Virus record (IMG/VR): IMGVR_UViG_2778261637_000006
Length of the DNA stretch: 41,036 nucleotides
DNA from: a virus
Lineage: Duplodnaviria; Heunggongvirae; Uroviricota; Caudoviricetes
Reading direction: 5' to 3' (one strand)
Shown one piece after another: positions 1-38,474 of this stretch; position 1 is the stretch's first letter, and each line of letters opens with the position of its first letter. The notes under the pieces are model-generated. The model searched no databases. It was given only the letters and a program-made list of their open reading frames with translations, and was not told where the DNA came from. A program made the position numbers and the translations under genes.

Positions 1-573
1 TTACATTTCAGGTTGCGTTATGACAGTCCCAACAGGGTGGTAGCGGTAGATCGTTGACAGTCCAATATCATAGATAATTGCCAGCCGCTTTCTGTCATAC
101 CCTTTCTGGAGCAATCTTGCGATCTGCTCATGCTGCTCCTTCGTCAGTTTCGGGCGACGTCCTCCAACTCTTCCTTGTGCTCGCGCAGCAGCCAGTCCTG
201 CCAGCGTGCGCTCAACTATCAGTTCACGCTCCATTTCTGCCAGTGCACCCATCATATGAAAAAAGAACCTTCCCATCGGAGTGCTGGTATCGATTGAATC
301 CGTCAGACTGCGAAAATTGACACCTTTTGCGCGTAGCTCTTCTGTGAGAGCAATGAGGTGTTTCATTCTTCTACCCAACCGATCCAGCTTCCAGACCACC
401 AATGTATCCCCTCTTTTAAGGCACTTTAAAGCGCGTTTCAGGCCTGGTCGTTCCGACTTGGTTCCGCTCATTTTGTCCTCAAAAATCTGTTCACATCCTG
501 CGCACATTAATGCATTGCGTTGCAAATCTGTGTTTTGGTCATTTGTTGACACACGTATGTAGCCAATCAGCAT
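1..573 (-). CDS. gin: Serine DNA invertase, Gin/Pin/Cin/Hin family
   Basis: 190 aa from internal Met MLIGYIRVSTNDQNTDLQRNAL; conserved resolvase catalytic Ser in VSTNDQ and C-terminal HTH; very close to the Mu Gin and e14 Pin sequences as recalled. The upstream 43 codons of the ORF track are rejected. Confidence 0.9.
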   Translation of the reverse strand: MLIGYIRVSTNDQNTDLQRNALMCAGCEQIFEDKMSGTKSERPGLKRALKCLKRGDTLVVWKLDRLGRRMKHLIALTEELRAKGVNFRSLTDSIDTSTPMGRFFFHMMGALAEMERELIVERTLAGLAAARAQGRVGGRRPKLTKEQHEQIARLLQKGYDRKRLAIIYDIGLSTIYRYHPVGTVITQPEM

Positions 574-628
574 TAAAAATACTCCCTTTTGAGTGGTTAA
601 AGTACTGAGATAATGTGGGGAGGATTTG

Positions 629-850
629 AGAGATAAACGTTGGTTTGGGGGAAGGCTCTGCACTGCCTGTTGGTGTGCCTGTTCCATGGCCCACCGCCAC
701 ACCGCCAGCAGGCTGGTTAAAGTGCGACGGGCGCGCCTTTACAAAAGAACAATATCCTGTTCTGGCCAGAGTCTACCCGACCCTCCGTCTTCCCGATTTG
801 CGCGGTGAGTTTATCCGTGGATGGGACGACGGGCGCAAAGTTGATACGGG
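629..850 (+). repeat. Copy A of a ~215-bp homology block shared by three tail-fibre cassettes; candidate gix/hix-like crossover core at about 629..654
   Basis: Near-identical to 1143..1365 and to the reverse complement of 2570..2784; the start contains AAACGTTGGTTTGGGGGAAGG, resembling the AAACC-NN-GGTTT core of Gin/Hin sites. Confidence 0.5.
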
Positions 851-1148
851 GCGTTCATTGCTAAGTGGTCAGGCTGCAACATTTATTCGTACAGCTTTGC
901 AGGATTATTACGGTTACGATCTGAATACTAATGTCAAAGTAGGTATCGCTTTTGCTACTGCTGATTCTGTTATAACCGTTGGAAACCCAGCTAATCCTAA
1001 AGCAGGAAATAATAGCGATTATGTTCCTGCATCAGCAGATAACTCTATAACGGGTATTCAAAGGACAGCGGAGGATAATTTTACCGGGGCATGGATATCA
1101 ATGCGCCCCCGCAATGTTGCGTTTAATTACATCGTAAGGGCCGCATAA
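645..1148 (+). CDS. Promoterless alternative tail-fibre C-terminal cassette 1
   Basis: Begins with TTG, no SD; first ~70 aa (LGEGSALPVGVPVPWPTATPPAGW...RGWDDGRKVD) match the C-terminal part of the fibre gene, then a divergent ~90 aa tip, ending in conserved RPRNVAFNYIVRAA. Confidence 0.7.
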   Translation: MGEGSALPVGVPVPWPTATPPAGWLKCDGRAFTKEQYPVLARVYPTLRLPDLRGEFIRGWDDGRKVDTGRSLLSGQAATFIRTALQDYYGYDLNTNVKVGIAFATADSVITVGNPANPKAGNNSDYVPASADNSITGIQRTAEDNFTGAWISMRPRNVAFNYIVRAA

Positions 1149-1365
1149 AAACGTTGGTTTGGGGGAAGGCTCTGCATTGCCTGTTGGTGTGCCTGTTCCG
1201 TGGCCCACCGCCACACCGCCAGCAGGCTGGTTACAGTGCAACGGAGCTACGTTCACCAAAGAACAATATCCTGTTCTGGCCAGAGTCTACCCGACCCTCC
1301 GTCTTCCCGATTTACGCGGTGAGTTTATCCGTGGATGGGACGACGGGCGCAAGATTGACGAGGGG
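1143..1365 (+). repeat. Copy B of the homology block; candidate crossover core at about 1143..1168
   Basis: Same AAACGTTGGTTTGGGGGAAGGCTC start and ~200 bp near-identity with copy A. Confidence 0.5.
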
Positions 1366-1632
1366 CGTAAGTTGCTTTCATGGCAGAAAGGTACACTGGT
1401 CGGCGGTCATGACGATAACGATTCTTCGCTGGATATCTCGTACATGAGTAACGGAAATAATATTGACTATGGCGGCGATAAGGTGTTTGCGGGGAATTAC
1501 CGTAGCGATTATTTGTGGTACGCAATTCTGGGTGGAACAAACAGTCGCGCAAAAGCCGAATTAAACGGAGCATTCTTTAACATAACCCGCCCCCGCAATA
1601 TCGCGTTTAACTATATCGTGAGGGCGGCGTGA
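1159..1632 (+). CDS. Promoterless alternative tail-fibre C-terminal cassette 2
   Basis: TTG start, shared N-terminal 70 aa, distinct tip, conserved end RPRNIAFNYIVRAA. Confidence 0.7.
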   Translation: MGEGSALPVGVPVPWPTATPPAGWLQCNGATFTKEQYPVLARVYPTLRLPDLRGEFIRGWDDGRKIDEGRKLLSWQKGTLVGGHDDNDSSLDISYMSNGNNIDYGGDKVFAGNYRSDYLWYAILGGTNSRAKAELNGAFFNITRPRNIAFNYIVRAA

Positions 1633-1638
1633 TACCGT

Positions 1639-2253
1639 TCAGCTGGCAAGTGCCAGTGGCGCTTCCGGCCAGCTGATTTCAGGTGCCGTGCTGATATCCA
1701 GTGCGTTCAGCTCGTCGATATAATCCAGCACGGCGTTCAGTTTTGCCGTTTCTTCTGGTGTCAGACTGCGACCAGCACGCAGTTTGAGGTTGATAAGATC
1801 GACGGACGCCATCGCCTGTTTCACCCGTTGCTGGCGTTGCTGTCTGGCAACCTCCAGTTCTGCGGCTCGCTGCCGTTCAGTATCGGTTACCCACGCCTCA
1901 CCGTTCCAGGTATCCCATGGCGTGGCCGGCTGTTTTGTGGTGGTGTCCGCCGGGTAATCACCCGGTTGGGTAATCAGAACGGGGTTACCGTTCTCCGTGC
2001 TGTATACCGTCTCGCCGCGGTGATCAGGCACATGCTCCCACCCGTTCAGCGTGGCAGTCCGGCAAACCACGTAACCCGAAATTGCCTCCGGCGGTGCATC
2101 GGCGCACGAATGTGCCGGAGTACCCACCCCAAGGGCGAGATACTCCACAGAGGATGAGGTGTATTCCCGGGTTTCCTCGTCATAGTGATATACAGTGATC
2201 TCGCCCGCTACAGTGGCGATACCGTTTTCATCCAGAACTGCAGTGTTACTCAT
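1639..2253 (-). CDS. Tail-fibre assembly protein (Mu U / Tfa family)
   Basis: 204 aa immediately downstream of the fibre gene with 1-nt overlap; Tfa-like N-terminus MSNTAVLDENG and C-terminal region. Confidence 0.8.
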   Translation of the reverse strand: MSNTAVLDENGIATVAGEITVYHYDEETREYTSSSVEYLALGVGTPAHSCADAPPEAISGYVVCRTATLNGWEHVPDHRGETVYSTENGNPVLITQPGDYPADTTTKQPATPWDTWNGEAWVTDTERQRAAELEVARQQRQQRVKQAMASVDLINLKLRAGRSLTPEETAKLNAVLDYIDELNALDISTAPEISWPEAPLALAS

Positions 2254-4190
2254 TAAACTGCCCTCACAATGTAATTAAGTGCAATGCTACGGGGTCTGAC
2301 AGTGATACCCTTCGCATACCCGCTTCTGATAGAGGTCAGAATAGTAGCCTGCATACCATTGTCTGACATTGCCACGACAGGATCGCTGAATGTTGTCCCG
2401 TCCGGCATTTTAAAGCTGCCCTCACGAAGGTCTGTAATGGAATCTTCATTGTTGAATCCCATGCCGACTATCCCCGAGGTTCCCGTAGTGTCCTGGTTAT
2501 AATAATCCAGCATTGCTGTTCTTAACAGCGTTGCCCCTTGTGCGGACAGCAACTTACGTCCTGTATCAACTTTGCGCCCGTCGTCCCATCCACGGATAAA
2601 CTCACCGCGTAAATCGGGAAGACGGAGGGTCGGGTAGACTCTGGCCAGAACAGGATATTGTTCTTTTGTAAAGGCGCGCCCGTCGCACTTTAACCAGCCT
2701 GCTGGCGGTGTGGCGGTGGGCCACGGAACAGGCACACCAACGGGTAGCGCCGAGCCTTCTCCTAAACCAAGGTAATTGAGGACATCTTTTATACTGCCCT
2801 TAGCGATAATAGCGCGACCAATAGCTGTAAGGGTTGCCAGCGCTGCGCGGTCTGCTCCGGTAAAATAAGGCAACCGATCTGCTGCAGTGGCAAGTCCTGC
2901 CAGAGCAGTGAGCGTGGCATCTGCCGGTTGTTTTCCGTTTGCCAGATCGTATGCAGCCTTGACCGCTTTCGGTGTGGCGGCCAGTATTTCAGACGTGCTG
3001 TTGATGGCACTGCTCAATTGTATGGTGCCTTTTGCCGTCAGCGAGGCAGCAGGCACTCCCGTTATCTGACTCCACGGGTGAGTGTGGCTGACGGGCGCCT
3101 TGCCGGCTGCAAGGTCGTATGCAGCCTTGACCGCCTTCGGCGTGGCAGCCTCAGTTTCTGATTGACTGTCCGTGGCGCTGCTCAGTTGTACGGTGCCTTT
3201 TGCCGTCAGCGAGGCAGCAGGCACTCCCGTTATCTGACTCCACGGGTGAGTGTGGCTGACGGGGGCCTTGCCGGCAGCCAGGTCATATGCAGCCTTGACG
3301 GCCTTTGGTGTGGCGGCCAGCGTTTCAGAGGTGCTGTTGGTGGCACTGCTCAGTTGTACGATCCCTTTACGGGTCGTTGTTGCATCCTGGGCTGTGTATT
3401 TTCCCCGGGCCAGATCATACGCGATTTTCACAGCCTTCGGCGTGGCAGCCTCAGTTTCTGATTGACTGTCCGTGGCGCTGCTCAGTTGTACGGTGCCTTT
3501 TGCCGTCAGCGAGGCAGCAGGCACTCCCGTTATCTGACTCCACGGGTGAGTGTGGCTGACGGGGGCCTTGCCGGCAGCCAGGTCATATGCAGCCTTGACG
3601 GCCTTTGGTGTGGCGGCCAGCGTTTCAGAGGTGCTGTTGGTGGCACTGCTCAGTTGTACGATCCCTTTACGGGTCGTTGTTGCATCCTGGGCTGTGTATT
3701 TTCCCCGGGCCAGATCATACGCGATTTTCACAGCCTTCGGCGTGGCAGCCTCAGTTTCTGATTGACTGTCCGTGGCACTGCTCAGCTGTACGGTGCCTTT
3801 TGCCGTCAGCGAGGCAGCAGGCACTCCCGTTATCTGACTCCACGGGTGAGTGTGACTGACGGGTGCCTTGCCGGCTGCAAGGTCGTATGCAGCCTTGACG
3901 GCTTTTGGTGTGGCGGCCAGCGTTTCAGAGGTGCTGTTGGTGGCACTGCTCAGTTGGGTGAACCCCTTAGCTGTCAGTGTCGCGTCCGGGTGGTTACGGG
4001 AACGTACGTGTTCAGCCAGTGACTGTGCGGCTTCCTCCGTTTTTTTCTTCAGCCATTTCGTCCTGTTTGCCAGTTGCCGGGGGGCTCGATTTGATATCCC
4101 GTCAGCACCACCCAGAACCGGATCTGATGTCTCCAGTTGATAGATTTTTTCTTCCCACTTTTCTGTTTCATTCAGGTTTCCCATAATCAA
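2253..4190 (-). CDS. Tail fibre protein (Mu S-like) with internal repeats; currently fused variable tip
   Basis: 645 aa; repeated ~100-aa units (TAKGTVQLSSATDSQSETEAATPKAVK...); C-terminal 170 aa begins with the shared LGEGSALPVG block. Confidence 0.9.
   Translation of the reverse strand: MIMGNLNETEKWEEKIYQLETSDPVLGGADGISNRAPRQLANRTKWLKKKTEEAAQSLAEHVRSRNHPDATLTAKGFTQLSSATNSTSETLAATPKAVKAAYDLAAGKAPVSHTHPWSQITGVPAASLTAKGTVQLSSATDSQSETEAATPKAVKIAYDLARGKYTAQDATTTRKGIVQLSSATNSTSETLAATPKAVKAAYDLAAGKAPVSHTHPWSQITGVPAASLTAKGTVQLSSATDSQSETEAATPKAVKIAYDLARGKYTAQDATTTRKGIVQLSSATNSTSETLAATPKAVKAAYDLAAGKAPVSHTHPWSQITGVPAASLTAKGTVQLSSATDSQSETEAATPKAVKAAYDLAAGKAPVSHTHPWSQITGVPAASLTAKGTIQLSSAINSTSEILAATPKAVKAAYDLANGKQPADATLTALAGLATAADRLPYFTGADRAALATLTAIGRAIIAKGSIKDVLNYLGLGEGSALPVGVPVPWPTATPPAGWLKCDGRAFTKEQYPVLARVYPTLRLPDLRGEFIRGWDDGRKVDTGRKLLSAQGATLLRTAMLDYYNQDTTGTSGIVGMGFNNEDSITDLREGSFKMPDGTTFSDPVVAMSDNGMQATILTSIRSGYAKGITVRPRSIALNYIVRAV
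2570..2784 (-). repeat. Copy C of the homology block, inverted relative to A and B, inside the fibre gene; candidate crossover core at about 2759..2784
   Basis: Reverse complement reads CCTTGGTTTAGGAGAAGGCTC followed by ~190 bp near-identical to copy A. Confidence 0.5.
2860..3960. repeat. Tandem direct repeat, 300-bp unit, about 3.5 copies, in-frame in the fibre gene
   Basis: Identical stretches at 3121, 3421 and 3721 (cagccttcggcgtggcagcctcagtttctgattgactgtccgtggc); shadow ORFs 3162..3461 and 3462..3761 are identical. Confidence 0.85.
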
Positions 4191-4765
4191 CTGCTCCCGT
4201 GGTTATAACTGCCATCATGGATGGCGGTATTGTTATAGCGAATGGCCACAGACTGATACTCCAGGCTGGCCAGATGGCAGCGGGCCGGTGCAAATGCAGC
4301 GAGCGTCTGACGCAGCATCGCGGCCTGATCGTTAGTAATGGGCTGTTTCAGAATAACGCGATAAACCGCCCAGGCGGCTGCATCTCCATGAACAAACAGT
4401 CCGTTATAGCTGCGATTGCCGTCGTAACTGAGACGACCTGTGCCTTCAATCAGATCCACTTCACCAAAGCCAAAACGGCGGATAACTTCCCGGATTGACC
4501 ACGGCGTCCCTTTATACCGGTGTAGTTCGATGGCTGCTTTTATAAGCATGCGGCGAACATCGTCCGATTCCGCCAGCTCCCAGCCATCGCCAGACAGTGA
4601 GAACTGCTCGCCCAGCCATGGCAGCGCAGAACTGTCGACGATATCGACGAGAAAGACCATCAGTACGCTCAGGTCGATGTTATCCAGCCGCCCTGCCAGT
4701 CTTCCCAGCGTCCTGAGACTGATATCACCCTCAAGCGGTGGCGGGAGTTGTAATGGCTCAGTCAT
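4187..4765 (-). CDS. Baseplate/tail protein (P2 gpI-like, Mu gp48-like)
   Basis: Position between the baseplate J-like gene and the fibre gene; ATG at 4765 chosen over upstream GTG. Confidence 0.7.
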   Translation of the reverse strand: MTEPLQLPPPLEGDISLRTLGRLAGRLDNIDLSVLMVFLVDIVDSSALPWLGEQFSLSGDGWELAESDDVRRMLIKAAIELHRYKGTPWSIREVIRRFGFGEVDLIEGTGRLSYDGNRSYNGLFVHGDAAAWAVYRVILKQPITNDQAAMLRQTLAAFAPARCHLASLEYQSVAIRYNNTAIHDGSYNHGSS

Positions 4766-5861
4766 CAGACACTCCACTCATGTTAAGTGTGATCGCCGTA
4801 CAGTTTGCCCATTCGTTTTCTGCCACCACCCTCAGTGCCGGTGTCACCAGTTCAACCTGGTACACCCCGGAAACGGACAATGCACTGATAATCTGGCTGG
4901 GGACAATATCACGCCCCAGCGTGGCGGCACGTGATGCCACCCAGTTCTGTATGGCGCTGTTAGCGGCATCTTTTACAGACCTGGCATCCTGATCACGATA
5001 GATCGTAATCCTGGCTTCAATGGTGTAATCCACCTTCACTGGTGTTTTAGCCCGCACTGTATCAGTGAGTGGCCTGACTTTCTCATCAGAGCAGAAACTC
5101 TCTACCAGCGTGAGAACACCGCCGTCCGGCAGACCGGTACTGAGCAGCGGATACAGATCTACGGTCCCGGGAACCGGGGAAAGCACAGCAACATCGACAA
5201 TGTTGGGATGGGCCTGCATGGCATGAAAGCGGTATGCGCCACGGCTTCCGGCATTGGTGAATGACTCCGGGGCCAGCCTGATACGCTCCCGGAGCCTGTC
5301 ATCGTCTTCCTGTTCTGAACCGCCGGAACTGGCCGTCAGATTGCTCACCAGCAGGTCGACGTTATCAATCTCATCGAGTAACTGACTGACCTGCGCAGGT
5401 TGCCAGCCGTTACCAGCGGTACCGGGTTCGGTACAGGTGGACGTGACATTGACCAGCAGCAATCCGGCCTTCAGTACCACATCTGTATCGGTGGCAAAAA
5501 TAACGCTGTCGGAAGCGCTGACGCGGGTGCCTGCCGGGATCAGCACATCAATGGTCAGTGCCTCATCCACAGAGAACTGAAGTGTGGTGGTGGCAGGCTG
5601 CGCGGCAAGGCGGTATACACCAACCAGTTCTCCGAGGTAATCAATCATCGGCTCTCGTGAAAAGGCGACCAGATTCTGCTTTGCTGCCTCCTGTACCGCA
5701 ACCCTGACCAGCATTTCGCGATAGGCCCACAGATCAATCAGCAGACGTTCTGCCTGTGCCGGGTACAGCGTTTTGCCGGTATCCGCTTCATACTTCGCAA
5801 TCATTTCTGCCGTGATTTTGTCGGCATCGCGTTCAATAAAATCGGGTTCTGTCAGCGCCAT
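4758..5861 (-). CDS. Baseplate J-like protein (Mu gp47 / P2 gpJ family)
   Basis: 367 aa, typical N-terminus MALTEPDFIERDADKITAEMIAKYE; conserved position. Confidence 0.85.
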   Translation of the reverse strand: MALTEPDFIERDADKITAEMIAKYEADTGKTLYPAQAERLLIDLWAYREMLVRVAVQEAAKQNLVAFSREPMIDYLGELVGVYRLAAQPATTTLQFSVDEALTIDVLIPAGTRVSASDSVIFATDTDVVLKAGLLLVNVTSTCTEPGTAGNGWQPAQVSQLLDEIDNVDLLVSNLTASSGGSEQEDDDRLRERIRLAPESFTNAGSRGAYRFHAMQAHPNIVDVAVLSPVPGTVDLYPLLSTGLPDGGVLTLVESFCSDEKVRPLTDTVRAKTPVKVDYTIEARITIYRDQDARSVKDAANSAIQNWVASRAATLGRDIVPSQIISALSVSGVYQVELVTPALRVVAENEWANCTAITLNMSGVSDD

Positions 5862-6199
5862 AGCAACTCCTGAGTCCGGGTCTGTCCGTCTGAGCCTTTC
5901 CAGCTCACCCGGAGCGTAAGATGTTCGCCGTCGACGGCGGGTTTAACTGACATAAGCTGGCAGCGGGGCTCCCAGCGTCGGATGGCATCGACGGATTCGC
6001 GCACCACATGCGGAATGGCCCGGTCTACAGGCCAGTCGATATAAAGATGCAGATTGCTGCCGAACTCCGGGCGATGCGGGTCGCTGCCGCGGGGAGTCCG
6101 CAGGATAATTTGAATCGCCTGCCGGATATCATCCAGCCCCCGGACAATTTCGCCGGGAGCCTGCAGGGTCGGTTGCCAGAATACTGAGGTTGTTTTCAT
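5852..6199 (-). CDS. Baseplate protein, GPW/gp25-like (Mu gp46)
   Basis: 115 aa; gp25-like motifs (IRQAIQIILRTPRGSDPHRPEFGSNL). Confidence 0.85.
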   Translation of the reverse strand: MKTTSVFWQPTLQAPGEIVRGLDDIRQAIQIILRTPRGSDPHRPEFGSNLHLYIDWPVDRAIPHVVRESVDAIRRWEPRCQLMSVKPAVDGEHLTLRVSWKGSDGQTRTQELLWR

Positions 6200-6253
6200 G
6201 GGGGCAGTATTGCCCCCGTGCGGGAACGCTGATATTAAAGGCGTTTAAAAAGC

Positions 6254-6850
6254 TCAGTGGGAGTGGTGGCTGGAGTTTTCGCCATCAGACAACATACTGC
6301 CCGTGGCATGGGCATTCCCTTTAATCTCGATATTGCCATGGATGGTCGCGGTAACACCTTCACCACCAGAACCCGCCATGCCTCCTTCGTAAATCAGCTT
6401 ACCCCTGACACGCAGATCTCCGGTAAGTTCGGTTTCCGGTGCGTCAATCGTGGCTTTCTGTGTTTTCAATACCACATCAGCACCACACTCAATGACAATA
6501 TGCTCAATGCCGCCCCGGATGATCAGAGTGTGCGTCTTCCGGTTGTAGCTGTACTCTGCACCATCAGCAAACCGGGTTCCCCGGATATTTTTGTCACTGA
6601 ACGGTGGTTTATCGACGTCTGAATACACCGCGCCCAGAATAACACCATCCTCGCCGTTGGCATCGAGCAGCACCTCAACCTGCTCCCCCACGTCAGGGAG
6701 CCAGTAATCTTTGTTATCCTGGGTATTGCGCTGCAGCACGTTAAGCCAGTTTGTGCGCAGGTTATCGCATTCAGGCAGACGAACGCGGGCCTGAACCCTG
6801 TCGGCATCAACGGCACTGACCGTACCGACCTGACGAGTGACACCAGTCAT
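6254..6850 (-). CDS. Baseplate spike/assembly protein V-like (Mu gp45)
   Basis: 198 aa; gpV-like N-terminus (VGTVSAVDADRVQARVRL). Confidence 0.8.
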   Translation of the reverse strand: MTGVTRQVGTVSAVDADRVQARVRLPECDNLRTNWLNVLQRNTQDNKDYWLPDVGEQVEVLLDANGEDGVILGAVYSDVDKPPFSDKNIRGTRFADGAEYSYNRKTHTLIIRGGIEHIVIECGADVVLKTQKATIDAPETELTGDLRVRGKLIYEGGMAGSGGEGVTATIHGNIEIKGNAHATGSMLSDGENSSHHSH

Positions 6851-8019
6851 TTTTTCTTCTCTCTTATTACTGTGGACGTGCTGCCGTCCGGTTTATAGAT
6901 GGTCAGCATCCGGGTTTTGCCGATTTTTTTACCTTTCTTCGCCTTGCCCTGTGTGATCGGCCCCCGTGCCACTTCCAGCTCTGTGGTGTAGCCGCTGTTA
7001 CGGTCAAACGCATGGCGGGCAGTGGTTATGAGCCATGGCCCGGATAACTGCCCAAAACCCACCAGTTCAATTTTGTTGCCTGCTGTCAGTTGAGGTGTTC
7101 CCGTCAGCGTCAGGGAGCCGTTCTGCTGGTATTCGTTATGTCTGGCCAGTGCTGAATCCGCTTTAATCCGGGCACTGTCCGGGTCGCTGACGCGGCTGTT
7201 AACTTTAAGTGAGTCAGCGCTGGTAACCTTACCACCTTTGAGCTTTTTGTCGCTTTCACGGGTACCACCATCAGCTTCGTAGACGATCAGTTTTTTACTG
7301 CTGCTTTTCTGGTGTTTTACCTTTGCAGATTTATAGACCCGGTTGATGGTGTCACGCAGGGAAAAGCGGGCCACATCCTGCGGTTTTAACTGCCTGACCG
7401 GCTCCTGACTGCGCAGTGTGGCCAGATGAGAAAAAATCAGCTGGTCACTGACCACTTTCACTGCATAACCATACTCGCTGGCCAGCCGGCGCAGAAAACC
7501 CACGTCGGTTTCAGCATACTGGGTCACCCGGTCGATTCTGATGGACTCAATGCTGCCCACCAGTTTCAGCCGGTGCTTTCTGGCAATCCGCCCCGCAACA
7601 GCTGCCAGCGTGGTGTTCTCAAAACCACGACTGGTTTTAGTCCGCAGGGCACTGTTAACCGAGGTGGCCACCCCACGGATAGAAACAACGGAAGCGGGCG
7701 AACTCACTTCGATCTCGTCTATAGAGAACGTACCGCAGGACAGCAGCTTCTCGTCCTGATAGCCCATTTTCAGCGTCAGCGTGTCACCCTTGCCCGGATA
7801 CCACTTATCCAGCCAGCGGCCATCGGTGTCGTCCAGCTCCACCTCAATGGTATCGGACTCATTTTTGATGTTATCGCTCCAGGTCACACGGGTGACATAA
7901 GGCGCGATATCAGAGGTGATGTTTTTCTGCAGATACCACAGAGTGAACACCGGTGTCAGCACATCGCTGACGCCGGTTAACGCTGATGTGACTTGCGCAG
8001 TGCTGTTTATCTCAGCCAT
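6847..8019 (-). CDS. Baseplate hub protein (P2 gpD-like, Mu gp44/P)
   Basis: 390 aa; conserved position upstream of V/W/J. Confidence 0.8.
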   Translation of the reverse strand: MAEINSTAQVTSALTGVSDVLTPVFTLWYLQKNITSDIAPYVTRVTWSDNIKNESDTIEVELDDTDGRWLDKWYPGKGDTLTLKMGYQDEKLLSCGTFSIDEIEVSSPASVVSIRGVATSVNSALRTKTSRGFENTTLAAVAGRIARKHRLKLVGSIESIRIDRVTQYAETDVGFLRRLASEYGYAVKVVSDQLIFSHLATLRSQEPVRQLKPQDVARFSLRDTINRVYKSAKVKHQKSSSKKLIVYEADGGTRESDKKLKGGKVTSADSLKVNSRVSDPDSARIKADSALARHNEYQQNGSLTLTGTPQLTAGNKIELVGFGQLSGPWLITTARHAFDRNSGYTTELEVARGPITQGKAKKGKKIGKTRMLTIYKPDGSTSTVIREKKK

Positions 8020-29293: not shown

Positions 29294-29345
29294 AGATTTT
29301 GAGTCTTTGTAAAAGGTTATCACATATCGCAAAAGAGGTATGCAG

Positions 29346-29654: not shown

Positions 29655-29664
29655 GGAGTAATAA

Positions 29665-30576: not shown

Positions 30577-30579
30577 CCA

Positions 30580-32349
30580 ATGAATGCTGCCCTGACTGAA
30601 CGACTGGTTTATGTCGCCCGCGCGGCACGTGACGCGGGGCATGGTAAACGCGGCGCAGTATACGACGCTGCCTGTGCTGAACTTGGCATGTCCCGCGCCA
30701 CTCTGCTGCGCAGGCTGAAGGAGGTATCTGTGACTGATAAACGCAAAAAACGCGCCGATGCCGGGCGCAGCGCCCTGACCCGCGACGAAGCCGCGCTGAT
30801 ATCTGCCACACTGCGTGAGGCCACCCGCAAGAACGGTAAGCGTCTCTATTCCATCGCGGATGCAGTGGAAACCCTGCGGGCTAACGGCTTTATATCCGCA
30901 GGCAGAACAGATGAAACCACCGGTGAGTTTTTCCCGTTGTCCGAAGATGCCATCAGCCGAGCCCTGCGTAACTATGGCCTGCACCCGGAACAACTGGATG
31001 CCCCTGCGCCGCATACCGAAGTGGCCAGTCTGCATCCCAATCATGTCTGGCAGATTGACGCCTCACTCTGCACGCTTTACTACCTGAGCAATGGACATAA
31101 AGGGCTGCAGGTGATGGACAGCGCGAAGTTCTACAAGAACAAGCCCGCTAACCTTGCCCGTATCGCCAGTGACCGCGTGTGGAGTTACGAGATTACCGAC
31201 CATGCCAGCGGCTGGATTTACGTTGAGTATGTGACGGGCGCGGAATCAGGTGAGAACCTGTGTTCTGTGCTTATCAACGCCATGCAGGAGCGTGGCGGCG
31301 CAGACGTGCTGCACGGTGTGCCGAAAATACTCTATCTCGACCCCGGCTCGGCAAACACCGCGGGTATGACGAAAAACATGTGCCGCTCACTGGGCATCGA
31401 CCTGATAGCGCACAAGCCGCATAACGCCCGCGCCACCGGACAGGTGGAAAAGGCGCGGGACATTATCGAACGCAAGCTGGAGCCGGGTCTGAAGTTCCGG
31501 CCGGTTCACAGTCTGGAAGAACTCAACGCGCTGGCCGCGAAATGGCGCAGCCACTTTAACGCCACGGCTGTTCACAGCCGCCACGGTAAAACCCGCACGG
31601 ATATCTGGCTGAAGATTACTGCTGAGCAGCTGAAAAAAGCGCCTTCCGTTGAGGTATGTCGTGAACTGGCTGTGGCGGCACCAGAACTCCGCAAAGTCAC
31701 GCCAAAACTTCGTGTCTCGTTCCGGGGCACTGAATTTGACGTATCAACGGTACCGGGCGTACTGGTTGGTGAAAAACTGATGATTACCCGTAACCCGTGG
31801 CGCAGCGATGTGGCACAGGTGGTTCTGACCGGTGAGGACGGCCACGAGACGTTCTTCCTGGTCGAAGAGGTCAGAAAGAACGAGTTTGGCTTTGCTGAAG
31901 GCGCGGCGGTATTTGGCGAAAGTTACAAAGCCCTGCCGGAAACCCCGGCGCAGATGGCGGCAAAAGAAACCGAAGCGCTGGTCACCGGTACAGACAACGC
32001 CGCAGATGCAGCTGCCGCACGCAAGGCGAAGGCGCTGCCGTTCGGCGGGCGGCTTGACCCGTATAAACATATCGACGACACCACACTTCCGGCCTATATG
32101 CCGAAGCGTGGTCAGGCCTCTGACGTACGCGGGCCGCGCACTGAACAACGTCCCATGACTTATGTGGAGGCCGCGAAAGCCCTGCGCGATAAGTTCAGCG
32201 CCAACGGCTTTACCTGGACGCCGGAACATTACCGCCAGTTAACGGCACAGTATCCGGACGGCGTACCGGAAGCCGCACTGGATGAAGTCATGGCCACGCT
32301 GACCACGCCGGCCCGCAGCAGCGTTATCAGTATTGTTAACGGCAACTGA
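30580..32349 (+). CDS. DDE transposase, Mu A-like (rve/integrase core)
   Basis: 589 aa; integrase-core-like region from about residue 150 (HVWQIDASL, ILYLDPGSANT); followed by B-like ATPase and Gam. Confidence 0.85.
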   Translation: MNAALTERLVYVARAARDAGHGKRGAVYDAACAELGMSRATLLRRLKEVSVTDKRKKRADAGRSALTRDEAALISATLREATRKNGKRLYSIADAVETLRANGFISAGRTDETTGEFFPLSEDAISRALRNYGLHPEQLDAPAPHTEVASLHPNHVWQIDASLCTLYYLSNGHKGLQVMDSAKFYKNKPANLARIASDRVWSYEITDHASGWIYVEYVTGAESGENLCSVLINAMQERGGADVLHGVPKILYLDPGSANTAGMTKNMCRSLGIDLIAHKPHNARATGQVEKARDIIERKLEPGLKFRPVHSLEELNALAAKWRSHFNATAVHSRHGKTRTDIWLKITAEQLKKAPSVEVCRELAVAAPELRKVTPKLRVSFRGTEFDVSTVPGVLVGEKLMITRNPWRSDVAQVVLTGEDGHETFFLVEEVRKNEFGFAEGAAVFGESYKALPETPAQMAAKETEALVTGTDNAADAAAARKAKALPFGGRLDPYKHIDDTTLPAYMPKRGQASDVRGPRTEQRPMTYVEAAKALRDKFSANGFTWTPEHYRQLTAQYPDGVPEAALDEVMATLTTPARSSVISIVNGN

Positions 32350-32359
32350 GGAGGGAAAC

Positions 32360-33526
32360 ATGCTGGTACTGAAGCAGCAACTGAAAGAAGCCCGTATTCC
32401 ACAGGCGGTGGTGGCGAGAGCTGTCGATGTTTCTGAGGCCACGCTGGCCCAGATTGTGAATCATAACGCGTGGCCCCGCACCAGCCCCGGAGAAGTGCGC
32501 CGGCGTCTTGCGTCCTGGCTGGAAAGTCAGGGGATTGATACAACGAAGAGTTTTGATGCTGTACAGGGCGCGGCCACGCCCCGTACAGCGGGTACCACAG
32601 ATAAAACGAGCCTCAGTGAGGAAGAGAATATGTTACTCAAAAAACAGGTGTTATTTCCAGCAACCAAAAAAGCGTTTGGTCTTTTCCGTGACCCGTTCGC
32701 CGACGAAGCCATGCAGGGTTCTGATGATGTGTTCACCACCCCGGATATTCGCTACGTGCGTGAGGCGTTGTACCAGACAGCCCGTCATGGTGGGTTTATG
32801 GCCGTCATCGGTGAGTCCGGTGCGGGTAAATCCACGCTGCGCCGCGACCTGACTGAACGTATCAACCGCGAGAATGCGCCGGTAATTGTTATCGAGCCAT
32901 ACATCATCGCTATGGAAGACAACGATGTGAAAGGGAAAACCCTGAAGGCAGCAGCGATTGCCGAAGCCATTATCAGTACCATCGCACCACTGGAAAGCAT
33001 CAGACGCAGTCAGGACGCCCGCTTTCGCCAGTTGCATCGCGTCCTGAAAGACAGCAGCCAGGCGGGGTTCAGCCACGTTCTGGTGATTGAGGAGGCCCAC
33101 AGTCTGCCCATTCCGACACTGAAACACCTCAAACGCTTTTTTGAGCTGGAGTCCGGTTTCAAAAAACTGCTGTCCATCGTGCTGATTGGCCAGCCGGAAC
33201 TGGCGACAAAACTGTCTGAACGCAATATGGAAGTCCGTGAAGTCGTTCAGCGCTGTGAGGTGGTCGAACTTCTGCCTCTGGACAATAACCTTGAAGAGTT
33301 TCTGACGTTCAAACTGCAACGGGCCGGTAAACAACTGACGGACATTATGGACGCCAGCGCAGTGGATGCCATACGTGCCCGCCTGAGCAATCCGGGAAGT
33401 CATCGTAAAAATATGGTCAGCCTGCTGTATCCGCTGGCCGTCAGTAACCTGGTAATAGCCGCCATGAATCTGGCCGCTGAAATCGGGGTTCCACAGGTCA
33501 ACGCTGACGTTGTCAAAGGGGTTTAA
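32360..33526 (+). CDS. Transposition ATPase, Mu B-like (AAA+)
   Basis: 388 aa from ATG 32360 with GAGGAGGG SD; N-terminal HTH, Walker A GESGAGKST, Walker B HVLVIEEAH. Confidence 0.8.
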   Translation: MLVLKQQLKEARIPQAVVARAVDVSEATLAQIVNHNAWPRTSPGEVRRRLASWLESQGIDTTKSFDAVQGAATPRTAGTTDKTSLSEEENMLLKKQVLFPATKKAFGLFRDPFADEAMQGSDDVFTTPDIRYVREALYQTARHGGFMAVIGESGAGKSTLRRDLTERINRENAPVIVIEPYIIAMEDNDVKGKTLKAAAIAEAIISTIAPLESIRRSQDARFRQLHRVLKDSSQAGFSHVLVIEEAHSLPIPTLKHLKRFFELESGFKKLLSIVLIGQPELATKLSERNMEVREVVQRCEVVELLPLDNNLEEFLTFKLQRAGKQLTDIMDASAVDAIRARLSNPGSHRKNMVSLLYPLAVSNLVIAAMNLAAEIGVPQVNADVVKGV

Positions 33527-33528
33527 TA

Positions 33529-33798
33529 ATGAAATCCACCACAGGTATCAACCAGCAAATCAGCAAAGTGCAGTCAGCCATTATGGCGCTTAAGGCGACG
33601 AACACGGATGTACAAAGCATCACCATCAGGGGTAACAAACCTGTCATCCGCGTTTCCCGGAGTGCGCATTGCATGCGCATGCTTGAGCAGGGAAAGGCCT
33701 GTTATCTGTATACCGGTCATGACCACAGGGGACATTTCCGTCAGGGCGTTTTCGAACTGCACGGCTGTCGCGTCGTGTGGCCGGAATCTTTGTGGTAA
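33529..33798 (+). CDS. Hypothetical small early protein
   Basis: 89 aa, several Cys/His; coupled to the B-like gene. Confidence 0.5.
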   Translation: MKSTTGINQQISKVQSAIMALKATNTDVQSITIRGNKPVIRVSRSAHCMRMLEQGKACYLYTGHDHRGHFRQGVFELHGCRVVWPESLW

Positions 33799-33825
33799 TC
33801 AGCACAACAGGAGGAGTCATAAAAT

Positions 33826-34356
33826 ATGGCAAAAAGTACAAAAGGGGCAAAACGTATCAAAGCCGCAGCAGCACTCTGGGTGCCGGGGACACGCGAAGAG
33901 GTCATTGAGGGAATCAGACTGCTTGGTGACGCGCAACGTGAACTGGTCAGGGCTGAAACAGAAATGAATGACACCATTGGCGACATCACCGCACGTTATG
34001 CCCCGCTCACCGAGAGCCTGAAAAAACGCATGGCCGAACTGCAGTCCGGTATTCAGACATGGTGTGAGGCACACCGTGATGAACTGACCGGCAACGGGAA
34101 GGTGAAGTTCGCTAACCTCACCACCGGCGAGGTGCAGTGGCGAAACCGTCCGCCGTCAGTCAGTATCCGTGGGGCGGATAATGTTATTGAATTACTGAGA
34201 CGTCTGGGGCTTGAGCGCTTTATCCGTGTAAAGGAGGAAATAAATAAAGACGCCATCCTGAATGAAAAGGACGCCGTGAAAAATATTCCCGGTATTACCA
34301 TAAAAAGTGATATTGAGGATTTTTCAATAATTCCTTTTGAGCAGAATGTGCAGTAA
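33826..34356 (+). CDS. gam: Host-nuclease inhibitor Gam (Mu Gam / Ku-like)
   Basis: 176 aa; blocks such as RIKAAAALWVP, WCEAHRDELTGNGKVKFANLTTGEVQWRNRPPSVSIRG, GIEDFSIIPFEQ match Mu Gam as recalled. Confidence 0.9.
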   Translation: MAKSTKGAKRIKAAAALWVPGTREEVIEGIRLLGDAQRELVRAETEMNDTIGDITARYAPLTESLKKRMAELQSGIQTWCEAHRDELTGNGKVKFANLTTGEVQWRNRPPSVSIRGADNVIELLRRLGLERFIRVKEEINKDAILNEKDAVKNIPGITIKSDIEDFSIIPFEQNVQ

Positions 34357-34452
34357 AAACAGCATATAAGCTATTTAAAACAGCCTTTTCTTTTTTATTC
34401 CGGCATCAGCGCCGTGGGCTTCTGCACGCCGGAAACAGAGGAGAATTAAATC

Positions 34453-34647
34453 ATGATATTTAAATGTATTCAGTGCGAGAGGGATATAACAGCCCTGCGT
34501 TTTCACAGCGCCATCGCCGTGATGTCCGGTAAGTACCACGTACCTGCAGTACGCGTCACCCTGGTCTGTCCGTACTGCAGTCAGCATTTTTCGGCAGACG
34601 TGCCCGTCATGGAATTCTCCCGCCCTGACAGGGAGGACTCGCAATGA
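34453..34647 (+). CDS. Small zinc-ribbon-like protein
   Basis: 64 aa with CIQC and CPYC pairs. Confidence 0.5.
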   Translation: MIFKCIQCERDITALRFHSAIAVMSGKYHVPAVRVTLVCPYCSQHFSADVPVMEFSRPDREDSQ

Positions 34648-34916
34648 TTACCCCACAGGAAGCACGACAGCGCACCCGAACCCTTGTTGAACACTATGTC
34701 AACGAGTGTGAATGCCGCGACCTCACCGATGTGAAGCACGTCCTGACGGCGCTAATCAGCATGACCGCTCAGGCCATTGTGGCGACCAACGGAAAGGCGG
34801 CTGCCCTGCAGGTACTGGTGAACACACTCACCCACACGGCAGAGCACGATGTGCCGTACCGGATGGAAACCACTGCAGAAGGCGGCCTGAACATCACCGT
34901 CGACCGGAAACACTGA
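34644..34916 (+). CDS. Hypothetical small protein
   Basis: 90-aa ORF coupled to neighbours. Confidence 0.5.
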   Translation: MITPQEARQRTRTLVEHYVNECECRDLTDVKHVLTALISMTAQAIVATNGKAAALQVLVNTLTHTAEHDVPYRMETTAEGGLNITVDRKH

Positions 34917-34925
34917 GGGCGCGGC

Positions 34926-35231
34926 ATGACACGGAACACCGAACTCACCCGCACCGCCCTCTACCGTCTGGCCCTGCAGCGTTTCGGGCCGGACGCACAG
35001 GCCCTGAAACTGACAGAAGAGGCCGCTGAACTGGCGGCCAGTGCCGCCCGCAACCTGAACGGACAGGGCAGCGAAAGTGACCTCGCGGCAGAGCTGGCAG
35101 ACGTGGAAATCATGACAGAGCAGCTGCGCCTTCAGGGAATGGACCGGCTGATTGACTTCCACAAACAGAAAAAACTGGAACGCCTTGCCGCACGGCTGGG
35201 CGTCATGTACACCGGAGATACTGAACAATGA
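34926..35231 (+). CDS. MazG-like nucleotide pyrophosphohydrolase-type small protein (tentative)
   Basis: 101 aa with acidic helices TEEAAELAASAA and AAELADVEIMTEQL resembling MazG-like metal-binding motifs. Confidence 0.45.
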   Translation: MTRNTELTRTALYRLALQRFGPDAQALKLTEEAAELAASAARNLNGQGSESDLAAELADVEIMTEQLRLQGMDRLIDFHKQKKLERLAARLGVMYTGDTEQ

Positions 35232-35911
35232 CAGACCAGGATAAACACATTGAGAAACTGAAAAAGTTGCTGGCGCTGGCCGCATCCGGCAACCCTCACG
35301 AGGCCGCTCTGGCACTGCGCCGTGCCCGTAAACTGATGGATGTTCACGGCATCACACATTCCGACATCGCCATGAGTGATATTGATGAAACCATCAGTCA
35401 CTACTGGCCGACAGGCAGCCTCCGTCCACCGCGCTACATGCTGGGCCTGATGAACATCATCCGCGAGGCATTTGGTGTTAACTCCATCATTCACCCCGGC
35501 ACATATCCGGGTGTGGGGTTCTACGGCAACCGGGAACGGGCTGCACTGGCTGCGTACACCTGGGAAGTGCTGGCCCGCCAGCTGAAAAAGGCGCGTCAGC
35601 AATATATCAGCGCACAGAACAAAAGAATAAAAACTGCCACCCGTACCAGCCGTGGTGACCAGTTTGCTGAAGGCTGGGTGCTGGCCGTTATCAGTGAAAT
35701 ACAGTCCTTCGCCCTGACCGATGACGAACGTGAACTGATGCAGCAGTGGCTGGAACATAAATACCCGCAGACGCAAACCACCAGGGCGCGTAAACCGGGA
35801 AGAAGCCGCAATGGCGACGCCTCGCGCTATGCGGGGTTTCTTGAAGGGCAGAACGTCAGACTGCACCGCCCGGTCAGTGGGCAGGAACAACAGAAACTGG
35901 AGGCCAGATGA
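35228..35911 (+). CDS. DUF2786-like early protein
   Basis: 227 aa; N-terminus IEKLKKLLALAASGNPHEAALALRRARKLMDVHGI. Confidence 0.55.
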   Translation: MTDQDKHIEKLKKLLALAASGNPHEAALALRRARKLMDVHGITHSDIAMSDIDETISHYWPTGSLRPPRYMLGLMNIIREAFGVNSIIHPGTYPGVGFYGNRERAALAAYTWEVLARQLKKARQQYISAQNKRIKTATRTSRGDQFAEGWVLAVISEIQSFALTDDERELMQQWLEHKYPQTQTTRARKPGRSRNGDASRYAGFLEGQNVRLHRPVSGQEQQKLEAR

Positions 35912-36138
35912 TTACGCTATCAGGTAAAAGCCGGAAATTAAAAGCCTGCCGAATATCTGCCAGATACCTTTTTGCCCGCGCCTTTTTTAAGAACGTCAGG
36001 CCGGGGATCACAATTGGTGTTATTGCCGGACGCGAACAGGTTGAAAAATACATGTCAGGTGCATGGTGGAATAACGACCCTGTCATTGCTGCCCGTAATA
36101 TTCATATCAGTTGGGGGGATATTCAGAATGACGGCTGA
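35908..36138 (+). CDS. Hypothetical basic small protein
   Basis: 76 aa, ATGA overlap with the upstream gene. Confidence 0.4.
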   Translation: MITLSGKSRKLKACRISARYLFARAFFKNVRPGITIGVIAGREQVEKYMSGAWWNNDPVIAARNIHISWGDIQNDG

Positions 36139-36343
36139 ATCTGTTGTATGTGCCCTGTTCTGGTATTGTTTTGTCGGTTGGTGTACTGCTGAACTGCACC
36201 GCCGTTCAGGGTTTTATTCACGTTACAGTGGTGCTGGCTACTGGATTAGCTGGTCGGTGATGTTCCTGTGCTGGCCTGTGGCGCTTCCTTTATATGTCGA
36301 TTATATCGGTGGCGCAGGTAAAAGGAGCAACGATGATGACTAA
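36128..36343 (+). CDS. Small membrane protein (two predicted TM helices)
   Basis: 71 aa from ATG 36128; hydrophobic segments VVCALFWYCFVGWC and WISWSVMFLCWPVALPLYV. Confidence 0.45.
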   Translation: MTAESVVCALFWYCFVGWCTAELHRRSGFYSRYSGAGYWISWSVMFLCWPVALPLYVDYIGGAGKRSNDDD

Positions 36344-36785
36344 ACAACGTCTTATCCAGCTCATTCATATTGCCCGTAATGAACTGGGTATGGATGAAGA
36401 CACCTACCGCCAGATGTTACAGGGGCTGACCGGTAAAGCCTCAACCAAAGGAATGGATACCACACAACTAAACTGCGTGCTGGAATCCATGAAAAGGAAA
36501 GGCTTTCGCGTTAAGCCTGCCGGAAAAGCCAGCTCCGGTTTACCGCTGGATAACCATCCGCAGTCCAGGAAAATCCGTGCGCTATGGCTTGAAATGGCTG
36601 CTGCCGGCATTGTTCGTGACCGTTCAGAAAATGCATTAGCGCGGTGGATCAAGCGGGAAACGGGCATCAGCGCCCTGCGCTGGCTCAGTACTGAACAGGC
36701 AAGCAGTGTTATTGAGAAACTGAAGAAGTGGCAGCGCAGAGCTGCGGGAGTCAAACATGAGCGACCTGAATCAGTTTCGAAGTAA
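36333..36785 (+). CDS. GemA-like protein (Mu gp16, DUF1018-like)
   Basis: 150 aa from ATG 36333 with AAAGGAG SD; immediately upstream of mor as in Mu. Confidence 0.6.
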   Translation: MMTKQRLIQLIHIARNELGMDEDTYRQMLQGLTGKASTKGMDTTQLNCVLESMKRKGFRVKPAGKASSGLPLDNHPQSRKIRALWLEMAAAGIVRDRSENALARWIKRETGISALRWLSTEQASSVIEKLKKWQRRAAGVKHERPESVSK

Positions 36786-37155
36786 AGGGCCGGAACTCCT
36801 GGTGGAGCTGGCACAGCATACCTCTGAGACCGTTCGCGAGATTATTGATATTGAGCCCGCAATTGCCGACCAGATTGGTCAGGCCGTCGCGAACCGAATG
36901 ATGCAGGTCTGGGGCGGGCAAAACGTTTATTTCCCGATGGGCATGGTATGGAAGGTCAGTCAGCGCGACCGGGAAATCTTCAGGGAGTTTAACGGACGCA
37001 ACCACCACGAACTGGCCCGCAAGTTTGGTGTTTCGCTTCAGTGGGTCTACAGCGTGGTTAAGCGGGTCAGAAAAGAAGAACTGGATCGGATGCAGGGCAG
37101 GTTGTTTGATGAAGATCTGCCAGAGGAGACGAAAGACGTTAACAAATCCAGATAA
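36757..37155 (+). CDS. mor: Middle operon regulator Mor (Mor/C family activator)
   Basis: 132 aa; C-terminal HTH FNGRNHHELARKFGVSLQWVYSVVKRVR matches the Mor pattern. Confidence 0.8.
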   Translation: MSDLNQFRSKGPELLVELAQHTSETVREIIDIEPAIADQIGQAVANRMMQVWGGQNVYFPMGMVWKVSQRDREIFREFNGRNHHELARKFGVSLQWVYSVVKRVRKEELDRMQGRLFDEDLPEETKDVNKSR

Positions 37156-37198
37156 TTCCTGCTTGTTAAAGTCCTTTCAAAAATCTCCTTATTGTATA

Positions 37199-37231
37199 AA
37201 AGCACGGTAGACCCCTTACCGTGCTTTTTTT
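37199..37231 (+). terminator. Rho-independent terminator after mor
   Basis: Stem AGCACGGTA / TACCGTGCT with 7-nt loop followed by TTTTTTT. Confidence 0.8.
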
Positions 37232-37269
37232 ATGCTCTCTCTTTAGTATTCAGGATGCAGGGAGAAAAT

Positions 37270-37902
37270 ATGTTTGACGTTTCGTTGTTAAATCTGCCAT
37301 GGGCAACACTGGTGACCCTGACCAGTGGCTATATTGGGTATTTTATTGCGAATGTGGGACTGAAGGATCACCACAAGCCCATTGAGGTGACTTTTTCTTC
37401 GCTGATTTTTGGCCTGACAGCAATGATGGCTTACCAGGCTGTTATGTGGGCAGGTCTGAATGCCTGGCTGGCAACACCACCAGCACTTCTGTGTGCCCTT
37501 ACATGCGGTGCGTGGTGGCGCAGGTACGGTCGCAAATGGATGTACAGATTACTGTGGAATAATGATATTTCATGGTCTGACGATACCAGCTCAGCATGGC
37601 AGGCAATGTTTGATCAAACAGGCTTCAGCGTTACCGAGGTCAGAGTGATTCTTCGCGATGGTTCCGGTATGATGTCACGGCTGCCAGGGAACTTTGAAGA
37701 GTGGCCTAACGGTCCGTTTACCCTGGGGAATAAAGGCGATATGGTTCTTTACGTCACGCACAGCAGCCCTTCAGGCAGTAACGAATGGGAAGAGTATAAA
37801 GGCGTGGTTGATAAGTACTGGGGAGCTCTGGCAACCTATATTCCAGCAGATCAGATTGCCAGAGTGGAGATCAGGCGCGTTCGTGCAACGAACGATGAAT
37901 GA
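37270..37902 (+). CDS. Membrane protein of unknown function (cargo near the prophage edge)
   Basis: 210 aa from ATG 37270 with GGGAGAA SD; about three N-terminal TM helices then ~110-aa soluble domain; after the mor terminator. Confidence 0.6.
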   Translation: MFDVSLLNLPWATLVTLTSGYIGYFIANVGLKDHHKPIEVTFSSLIFGLTAMMAYQAVMWAGLNAWLATPPALLCALTCGAWWRRYGRKWMYRLLWNNDISWSDDTSSAWQAMFDQTGFSVTEVRVILRDGSGMMSRLPGNFEEWPNGPFTLGNKGDMVLYVTHSSPSGSNEWEEYKGVVDKYWGALATYIPADQIARVEIRRVRATNDE

Positions 37903-38474
37903 TGTTTATTTTTTCCCTGGGGCAGGGGCTGCCGGCATAGTGGTTTTATTGGCAGAGGAAGACGATTCTCCTTTTCTACCGGAATCGCGCTCGAACGTCA
38001 CGATGTGCTTGCTTTTGGGCTTTTCTGAGTAATCCAGGCTATCATGCTTATTGTTTTGAGTAGTCATTGGAATCATCCTTTTTGTTGCGGGTCATGTTTC
38101 AGCAAACTCGATTCTAAGTTGCCAGGAAGGATGATTTCAATGCCCGACTTATCTATCGTATAGCGGAAAAGAATTTCAGTTCTGTTCACCAGAACCCATG
38201 TTAACCCACTCCAATTCGTTATTTATCTCACGGATCCCCCTTCATTTATCTCATGTCTGATCATTTATTCAACCGACGCAATTTTGCGTACCTGCTTCAT
38301 AAGCATCACGCAAAAGCTGCAAAACAGCATCTTTCCCGGAATCACCATCAAGAACTCGCCGTTCGCTTCTTCCCCTGAAATGATTAACTCCGGTATCATG
38401 TGCGCCTTATGTGATTACAACGAAAATAAAAACCATCACACCTCATTTAATATCAGGGAACCGGACATAACCCC

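Follow-up and report, generated by a model that had tools for sequence, protein, structure and literature searches.

Is a Mu-like early region that is transcribed away from its own structural genes a native genome organization, a rearranged one or a product of faulty assembly? The question is raised by the virus record IMGVR_UViG_2778261637_000006 of IMG/VR (Caudoviricetes), a stretch of 41,036 nucleotides (hereinafter the window) in which an early operon on the plus strand is directed towards mutS and the late genes occupy the minus strand. A first-pass annotation of the window set this arrangement against the single-strand order of Mu and listed, without choosing among them, three options: that a distinct lineage is natively organized in this way, that the early block was inverted internally, and that the arrangement is an assembly artefact. 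Its description is borne out by the open reading frame (ORF) map and Pfam matches, which recover both blocks at about the coordinates it gave, and by the map of Mu (NC_000929), in which the blocks do lie on one strand. We uphold the first of its options and reject the other two: the window very probably contains an apparently intact transposable prophage of about 38.3 kb that belongs to the BcepMu lineage, in which the divergence of the early and late blocks is native. This layout is an already described lineage trait and neither an inversion nor an artefact; having been published for the BcepMu family (PMC3091646), it is not the surprise that the annotation took it to be.

Module order and orientation among relatives

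Gene order was compared with that of BcepMu (NC_005882) and Mu by tblastn, protein by protein, for 52 window genes. Homologues of 36 of these are present in BcepMu, in perfect collinear order and with the same relative orientations, all late genes lying on one strand and all early genes on the other. On the BcepMu map, gp01, encoding the Mor/C-family protein, stands at the left end on the minus strand, with GemA, gp08, the gp09 transposase and the helix-turn-helix (HTH) protein gp16 likewise reading leftward; the rightward genes comprise gp17 (repressor), gp21 (holin), the SLT lysin, Rz/Rz1, terminase, the head and P2-like tail genes and the gp52 fibre. The early operon of the window is collinear with gp16..gp01, on the opposite relative strand. 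The two phages share an identical order and orientation of modules, in which mor ends an outward-reading early operon at the genome end, a cI-type repressor is central, a holin/SLT/Rz cassette is followed by a Mu-like head and then a P2-like tail, and there is a single Mor/C gene. Identity to BcepMu reaches 68% for the transposase (gp09) and 59% for the B-like ATPase (gp08), both matches spanning the full length of the proteins, and 76% for the sheath. BcepMu differs in its betaproteobacterial host, in being without the Mu-type Gam, DUF2786, Dam and end-proximal membrane proteins of the window, and in carrying HU, SSB-like and acyltransferase genes instead.

Mu resembles the window element in its DDE transposase with an ATPase partner, Gam (62% identity), GemA, a Mor/C-family activator, TerL (49%), portal, F, G and Gin (77%), as well as in a tail-fibre segment that can be inverted and in four late promoters that pair a dyad with a -10. 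In Mu, by contrast, every block lies on a single strand, Mor is succeeded by a second activator, C, and there is a middle operon; the Mu A, B, c, ner, lysis and tail genes have no BLAST match to their window counterparts. Searches of the window by tblastn with Mu A, B, c, ner, lys, mom and com returned no meaningful match (for A, c, ner and lys none at E <= 1), B giving only a stray match of 51 residues (E = 0.12) away from the B-like gene; the element is therefore not a rearranged Mu, a candidate that we rejected. It departs from canonical Mu on five counts, namely layout, A/B/c/ner homology, the two-activator cascade, tail type and duplication size, and it agrees with the BcepMu lineage in both architecture and homology. 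Early and late genes of the window each map to the plus strand of Mu, and hence the early block is inverted relative to Mu. Published work regards a left-end inversion relative to Mu as a feature shared across the BcepMu family (PMC3091646, with reference to Summer et al. 2004); the papers on KS10, SuMu and SfMu do not state the BcepMu orientation explicitly.

The closest relatives reproduce the layout in full. Escherichia phage PhiKM (PQ738613) is essentially the same phage, being collinear and 93-99% identical over most shared segments, with one stretch at 84%; its record (L001) is partial and permuted, joins the tail-fibre end to the mor end and is without the invertase segment, and our literature search found no paper on this phage. 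Sibling E. coli prophages (G749, EC21GDE043, elppa9 and ABU 83972) have the same layout, ends and late-promoter motifs, and differ in their insertion sites and by small changes in the tail-fibre repeats and the accessory region. The copies in G749 (99.98% identity, splitting an amino-acid permease gene) and EC21GDE043 (99.92%, near fecE) are collinear over the whole 38263 bases, and each is bounded by a 6-bp duplication. The junction between the two blocks (25400..29800) was sought in 5426 complete E. coli genomes, with at least 80% coverage counted as contiguous; it is matched in 636 and contiguous in 488, and in the genomes of lower coverage only the middle accessory genes are exchanged, the holin and HTH flanks being in place. 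These data bear directly on the proposal that contigs or two prophages were mis-joined at 26.1-29.1 kb or 37.2-38.5 kb, a question that we judged by the reproducibility of the junctions across genomes. Both junctions recur base for base in many independently assembled complete genomes, and the 38263/38264 junction fits a clean empty site in other E. coli; we found nothing to favour an assembly artefact, which is vanishingly unlikely.

We also carried out a transposase-seeded survey, which covered 80 loci, one in each of 80 species-level genomes from the Gamma- and Betaproteobacteria; 12 of these were too short to be informative. Divergence like that of the window is found in 63 of the 68 informative loci, whose transposase gene has the genes for lysis and packaging upstream of it on the other strand. 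The Klebsiella sequence 'KP12_2' is collinear at ~81-88% identity and in the same orientation; its record (OM835952, L002, 'Klebsiella phage KP12 clone KP12_2') is filed under Vequintavirinae, yet is a BcepMu-type prophage sequence. The first-pass annotation had reasoned that related functional phages of the same orientation would make the layout a lineage trait, and such relatives exist in BcepMu, which is a plaque-forming and hence functional phage, and are joined by PhiKM and the 63 loci from other species.

Against this background, we considered whether a Mu-like collinear ancestor gave rise to this prophage by an inversion of the early block (about 28.6-38.3 kb) that is private to the strain. 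The block is indeed inverted relative to Mu, and the layouts of three survey loci (L035, L041 and L069) imply that module orientation has changed during evolution. However, the orientation of the window recurs in BcepMu, PhiKM, KP12, 488 E. coli genomes and 63 other species, and the near-identical copies elsewhere are collinear with it, their duplications bounding the unit as a whole. A private inversion is thus extremely unlikely, and any inversion is ancient and lineage-wide.

Other layouts do occur. KS10 (NC_011216) is like the window element in being transposable, in having modules re-oriented relative to Mu and in its BcepMu-like holin, lysin and early genes; it differs in that its lysis and packaging genes diverge from the early operon, with mor directly followed on the same strand by protease, head and a Mu-like tail, and it represents a third layout distinct from that of the window. 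Alternative layouts are also carried by L035 (a Burkholderiaceae metagenome-assembled genome, MAG), L041 (Rhodocyclus tenuis), L069, L039 and L063, a few relatives with a BcepMu-type transposase (54-68% identity). In L035, L041 and L069 the early operon is followed downstream, on its own strand, by packaging genes, and in L035 and L069 by lysis genes as well; in L035 the protease and head genes are upstream on the opposite strand. These layouts could be real, or could reflect neighbouring prophages or MAG assembly. The arrangements in L035, L041 and L069 suggest a fourth layout, giving a count of at least four: that of Mu, that of BcepMu and the window, that of KS10, and the L035/L041 type. 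Tentatively, and as an idea that we would not yet call probable, we posit that in phages with BcepMu-type transposases the early, lysis-plus-packaging and head-plus-tail modules are freely re-orientable, with breakpoints at the late-promoter gaps and the genome ends.

Ends, target duplication and insertion site

Alignments to many E. coli genomes stop at 38263, beside host genes as unrelated as yeiB, yecR, tnaB, irp1, yfaV and yodD, which is the pattern expected of a transposable phage. The early-side transposition end is thereby located at 38263; its late counterpart, as placed from L003, L086 and L087, is outside the window, ~78 bp beyond the stop codon of the invertase gene (window base 1), so that of the two ends that the first-pass annotation had left to be found the window supplies one. 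Both ends bear two copies of G[AC]GATAAAT[GA], at 12-21 and 35-44 nt from the tip, which are presumptive transposase-binding sites. Three independent sibling insertions have the termini TGATG...TGATCA and target duplications of 6 bp (CAGTCC, ATTAGC and GGAATG), that of L003 being at 3457-3462/42105-42110 and the other duplicated ends those of L086 and L087. The target-site duplication of Mu is 5 bp, the size that had also been assumed for the window; from the three sibling duplications it follows that this family duplicates 6 bp, unlike Mu.

The insertion site of the window copy is found empty in E. coli 7/2, whose ygbA-mutS spacer reads ...GGAGGAGG-TTTATT-CAACCGACG, and TTTATT directly after the early-side end is accordingly predicted to be the duplication of this copy. 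The mutS start codon is at 38475, which puts the prophage ~211 bp upstream of it, at the stop codon of a small annotated ORF; in none of the 5426 complete E. coli genomes searched is the ygbA-mutS site occupied by this phage. Mobility by transposition is evident from the sibling copies, with their many sites, TG...CA termini and short duplication, and the window copy itself shows one end and a matching empty site.

The ends are also informative as to whether the element might be a chance composite or a decaying remnant, for instance a Mu-like early region that happens to lie beside an unrelated prophage with a P2-like tail. Such an origin would accord with the P2-like tail and the Mu-like head and early genes, and with the annotation of part of the G749 tail-fibre gene as a pseudogene. 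However, the same mosaic is displayed by plaque-forming BcepMu, and the entire 38.3-kb unit is enclosed, in three genomes, by a single pair of inverted ends and a single 6-bp duplication. The window retains intact ORFs, arranged collinearly with those copies, and induction has been reported for gut prophages assigned to Bcepmuvirus (PMC12629997). We hence consider a composite or remnant highly unlikely and retain the interpretation as an intact BcepMu-lineage prophage.

Late promoter-like sites and a proposed two-tier cascade

The late region had been described as one operon starting from 26158. Its strand is as described, but 26158 is the GTG start of the longest ORF, upstream of the more likely holin start (Table 1), and the presence of four promoter-like sites speaks against a single operon. 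The window has exactly four matches to YTAA-N6-TTAAWATC (0.21 expected by chance), a number that does not rise when one mismatch is allowed; all of them are on the minus strand in late intergenic gaps. They have a common geometry, namely a 16-bp imperfect dyad of 5-6-5 form, exactly 22 nt, and a -10-like nAnnCT hexamer, without a -35 element; in three of the four the start codon is ~20-25 nt past the predicted transcription start. Studies of Mu describe C and Mor as binding, in promoters with a -10 and without a -35 element, to an imperfect dyad of 16 bp that is made up of two 5-bp inverted repeats and centred at -43.5 (PMC2582627; PMC4390567), and by their pattern the four putative late sites match this Mor/C-dependent promoter geometry. 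A dyad 5' of the holin gene is present in 37 of 56 related loci, with a variable N6 spacer, and in most of the 37 its half-sites are 73-91 bp upstream of the holin start. BcepMu too has related dyad motifs 5' of its holin, protease and gpW homologues; the place homologous to the protease site reads CGTAA-AGCCGA-TTAAA, and the last of the three lies between the gpV and gpW homologues.

The sole Mor/C-family activator locus in the window is the last gene of the early operon, which is matched in tblastn by both Mu Mor and Mu C; neither a second Mor/C homologue nor a homologue of Mu lys was found in the window (tblastn, E <= 1). The earlier observation that mor is followed by a terminator and a membrane protein is correct, as the features in Table 1 attest. 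The accompanying expectation of a late activator and lysis genes after mor does not apply to this lineage: the role of late activator most likely falls to the single Mor/C-type protein, and the late block opens with the lysis genes.

Based on these features we propose the following cascade. The HTH repressor would keep the early promoter (~29029..29057) shut; upon induction, an early transcript would supply the transposition proteins, Gam, GemA and lastly the Mor/C-type activator, and would be halted at the terminator that closes the operon, so that it would not read into the cargo gene or mutS. The activator would then act in trans, through predicted binding to the dyads, on the four late promoters of the other strand, and two tiers (early, then late) would replace the three of Mu. 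Given trans activation and the same pair of presumptive transposase-binding repeats at both ends, the orientation of the early block would be without functional cost, and this neutrality would explain why it can differ from Mu. By extension, it is conceivable, if somewhat short of an even prospect in our estimation, that re-orientation in general is permitted by the dependence of all late units on a single Mor/C-type activator, acting in trans via a conserved TTAA-N6-TTAA dyad in a two-tier cascade without C. Neither the dyad motif nor the two-tier logic turned up in the literature that we examined, to which the original BcepMu paper did not belong.

Several points weigh against this overall picture of the element and its regulation. 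The -10-like hexamers of the late sites are weak (3-4 of 6 matches), the predicted transcript from the gpW site is almost leaderless, and promoters and operators are assigned solely by the pattern and position of their sequences. Outside the window lie the late end and the other copy of the duplication, so that a duplication bounding this prophage copy, itself known from its sequence alone, is a prediction. Lastly, nucleotide alignment with BcepMu covers only 8.4 of the 38.3 kb, at 66-70% identity, and on this measure strict membership of its genus is uncertain, the ICTV-style genus figure being ~70% nucleotide similarity across the genome. GenBank places the near-identical PhiKM under Bcepmuvirus; the element is probably a sister genus of BcepMu inside the same lineage.

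Module contents, cargo and tail-fibre inversion

Table 1. Features of the prophage and its regulatory and terminal sites in window coordinates; promoter and target-duplication assignments are predictions.
Feature	Coordinates	Strand	Basis or remarks
Early operon	29105..37155	+	Ner-like, second HTH, DUF3102, transposase, B-like ATPase, Gam, small ORFs, DUF2786, GemA, Mor; Pfam
Ner-like HTH	29105..29293	+	Pfam
Second HTH	29340..29654	+	Pfam
DUF3102 protein	29665..30576	+	Pfam
DDE (rve) transposase	30580..32349	+	Pfam rve; BcepMu gp09
AAA+ (AAA_22/ExeA-type) transposition ATPase, B-like	32360..33526	+	Pfam; BcepMu gp08
Gam, Mu-type	33826..34356	+	Pfam
DUF2786 protein	35228..35911	+	Pfam
GemA	36294..36785	+	Pfam
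Mor	36757..37155	+	Last early-operon gene; Pfam Mor 1e-43; 56% identity to BcepMu gp01
Intrinsic terminator closing early operon	37198..37228	+	13-bp stem, U-run, -19.1 kcal/mol, z = -6.4
Cargo ORF, 210 aa	37270..37902	+	Hydrophobic N-terminal segments; PHROG 12870 (function unknown)
53-aa ORF beyond 210-aa ORF	37906..38067	-	
cI/c-type HTH repressor	28666..29004	-	Pfam HTH_3; PHROG repressor families; PGAP starts
Repressor terminator	28556..28580	-	-17.1 kcal/mol, z = -4.8
Sigma-70-like putative early promoter, TTGACT-17-CATAAT	29029..29057	+	Consensus scan, 10/12 matches
Variable accessory region between blocks	26256..28549	both	orf26256 (+), orf26975 (-), orf27378 (+), Dam; Pfam, PHROGs
D12-class Dam methylase	27785..28549	+	In accessory region
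Late block	26125..1	-	Holin, SLT lysin, Rz, TerS, TerL, portal, F, G, protease, capsid, P2-like tail, fibre, invertase
Lysis cassette heading late block	23761..26125	-	Homologues of BcepMu gp21-gp26; PGAP 'putative holin', 'transglycosylase SLT domain'
Holin	25775..26125	-	26158 GTG is the longest-ORF start
SLT transglycosylase	25035..25772	-	
Rz-like	24395..25006	-	
Mu-like head/packaging module	15128..23764	-	TerS, TerL, portal, F, G, protease/scaffold, major capsid, DUF2190, gp36, gp37
P2-like contractile tail module	1639..15138	-	Sheath, tube, gpE, tape measure, gpU, X, D, V, W, J, I, fibre, fibre assembly
Gin/Hin-type DNA invertase	1..573	-	77% identity to Mu Gin; stop codon at window bases 1-3
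Invertible tail-fibre segment	637..2773	both	Two alternative fibre C-terminal cassettes facing expressed fibre gene
Alternative fibre C-terminal cassettes	645..1148, 1159..1632	+	
Tail-fibre assembly gene	1639..2253	-	Faced by plus-strand cassettes
Late promoter-like site 5' of holin	26151..26194	-	Dyad CTTAA-N6-TTAAA (26179..26194), 22 nt, GATGCT (26151..26156)
Late promoter-like site 5' of protease/scaffold	18753..18796	-	TCTAA-N6-TTAAA, 22 nt, CAAACT; Mu PI position
Late promoter-like site 5' of gpE/tape measure	12836..12879	-	CTTAA-N6-TTAAT, 22 nt, CATACT
Late promoter-like site, gpV-gpW gap	6206..6249	-	TTTAA-N6-TTAAT, 22 nt, AATACT
Early-side transposon end	38220..38263		Finishes ...TGATCA at 38263; repeats 38243..38252, 38220..38229
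Predicted 6-bp target duplication, TTTATT	38264..38269		ygbA-mutS intergenic, 206 to 211 bp upstream of mutS start codon

Within the early operon, the AAA+ ATPase encoded next to the transposase is the predicted functional counterpart of MuB. The repressor, whose transcription is directed away from the early operon, is most plausibly a protein of 112 aa, longer ORF starts being available at 29124 and 29157. A sigma-70-like promoter sits in the 100-bp divergent region between the repressor and ner genes, a position which suggests that it may serve as the early promoter.

Between the holin promoter and the repressor, the accessory region (26256-28549) is a slot for cargo that is readily exchanged: other copies in E. 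coli have an ABC-type ATPase or a DUF2441 protein in place of its content, with both flanks retained. PADLOC and Pfam searches returned nothing for the small genes of this region, and matches in PHROGs were confined to families whose function is unknown; conservation of the Dam methylase extends widely among relatives from other genera. The span from the early terminator to the transposon end, where BcepMu is without a gene, is filled by the genes for the 210-aa and 53-aa proteins. The former is labelled hypothetical in sibling copies and has no Pfam or PADLOC match, and we regard the two genes as candidate lysogenic-conversion or exclusion cargo.

In the late block, the lysis cassette additionally contains two small conserved genes. 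The head/packaging module is collinear with BcepMu gp27-gp38, its TerL and F being respectively 49% and 48% identical to those of Mu. The tail module comprises collinear homologues of BcepMu gp39-gp52 (31-76% identity), with concurring PGAP names, and has no match among Mu tail proteins; the P2-like tail of BcepMu has been noted before (PMC10612066). In-frame tandem repeats are present in the tape-measure gene (9704-10499; 3 copies of a 261-bp unit, 96%) and the tail-fibre gene (2940-3956; ~2.7 copies of a 300-bp unit, 98% matches), the latter array varying in length among sibling prophages. The 214-bp gap between the G and protease genes is near the exact centre of the 38.3-kb genome, and Mu has a strong gyrase site at its genome centre. 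A hairpin-like sequence occurs in this gap (18797-18936), as it does at the same place in BcepMu; we considered it as a counterpart of the Mu gyrase site or a terminator, but its predicted fold is weak (z = -1.9) and it remains unexplained.

At the late end, the invertase gene, an identical copy of which is named 'recombinase family protein' by PGAP, is next to fibre cassettes flanked by inverted repeats (637-910/2500-2773, 274 nt, 88%; 1151-1379/2545-2773, 229 nt, 89%), an arrangement that constitutes an invertible tail-fibre system like the G segment of Mu. An inversion of 2610 bp has been reported in a BcepMu-like prophage of E. coli (PMC11610265), and BcepMu is reported to lack both an invertase and an invertible tail-fibre segment (PMC2628397).

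As the layout is a textbook feature of the BcepMu lineage and the prophage is common in E. coli, its discovery value is small; what is mildly new is the explicit four-site late-promoter map together with the hint of further variation in module orientation within the family. Annotators who meet a Mu-like early operon directed outward, away from the structural genes, should take it for the mark of a BcepMu-type phage, rather than of damage or mis-assembly, and should look for the ends of such elements as TGATG...TGATCA flanked by a 6-bp duplication. The late transcription units, in turn, can be mapped readily from the four dyad sites.

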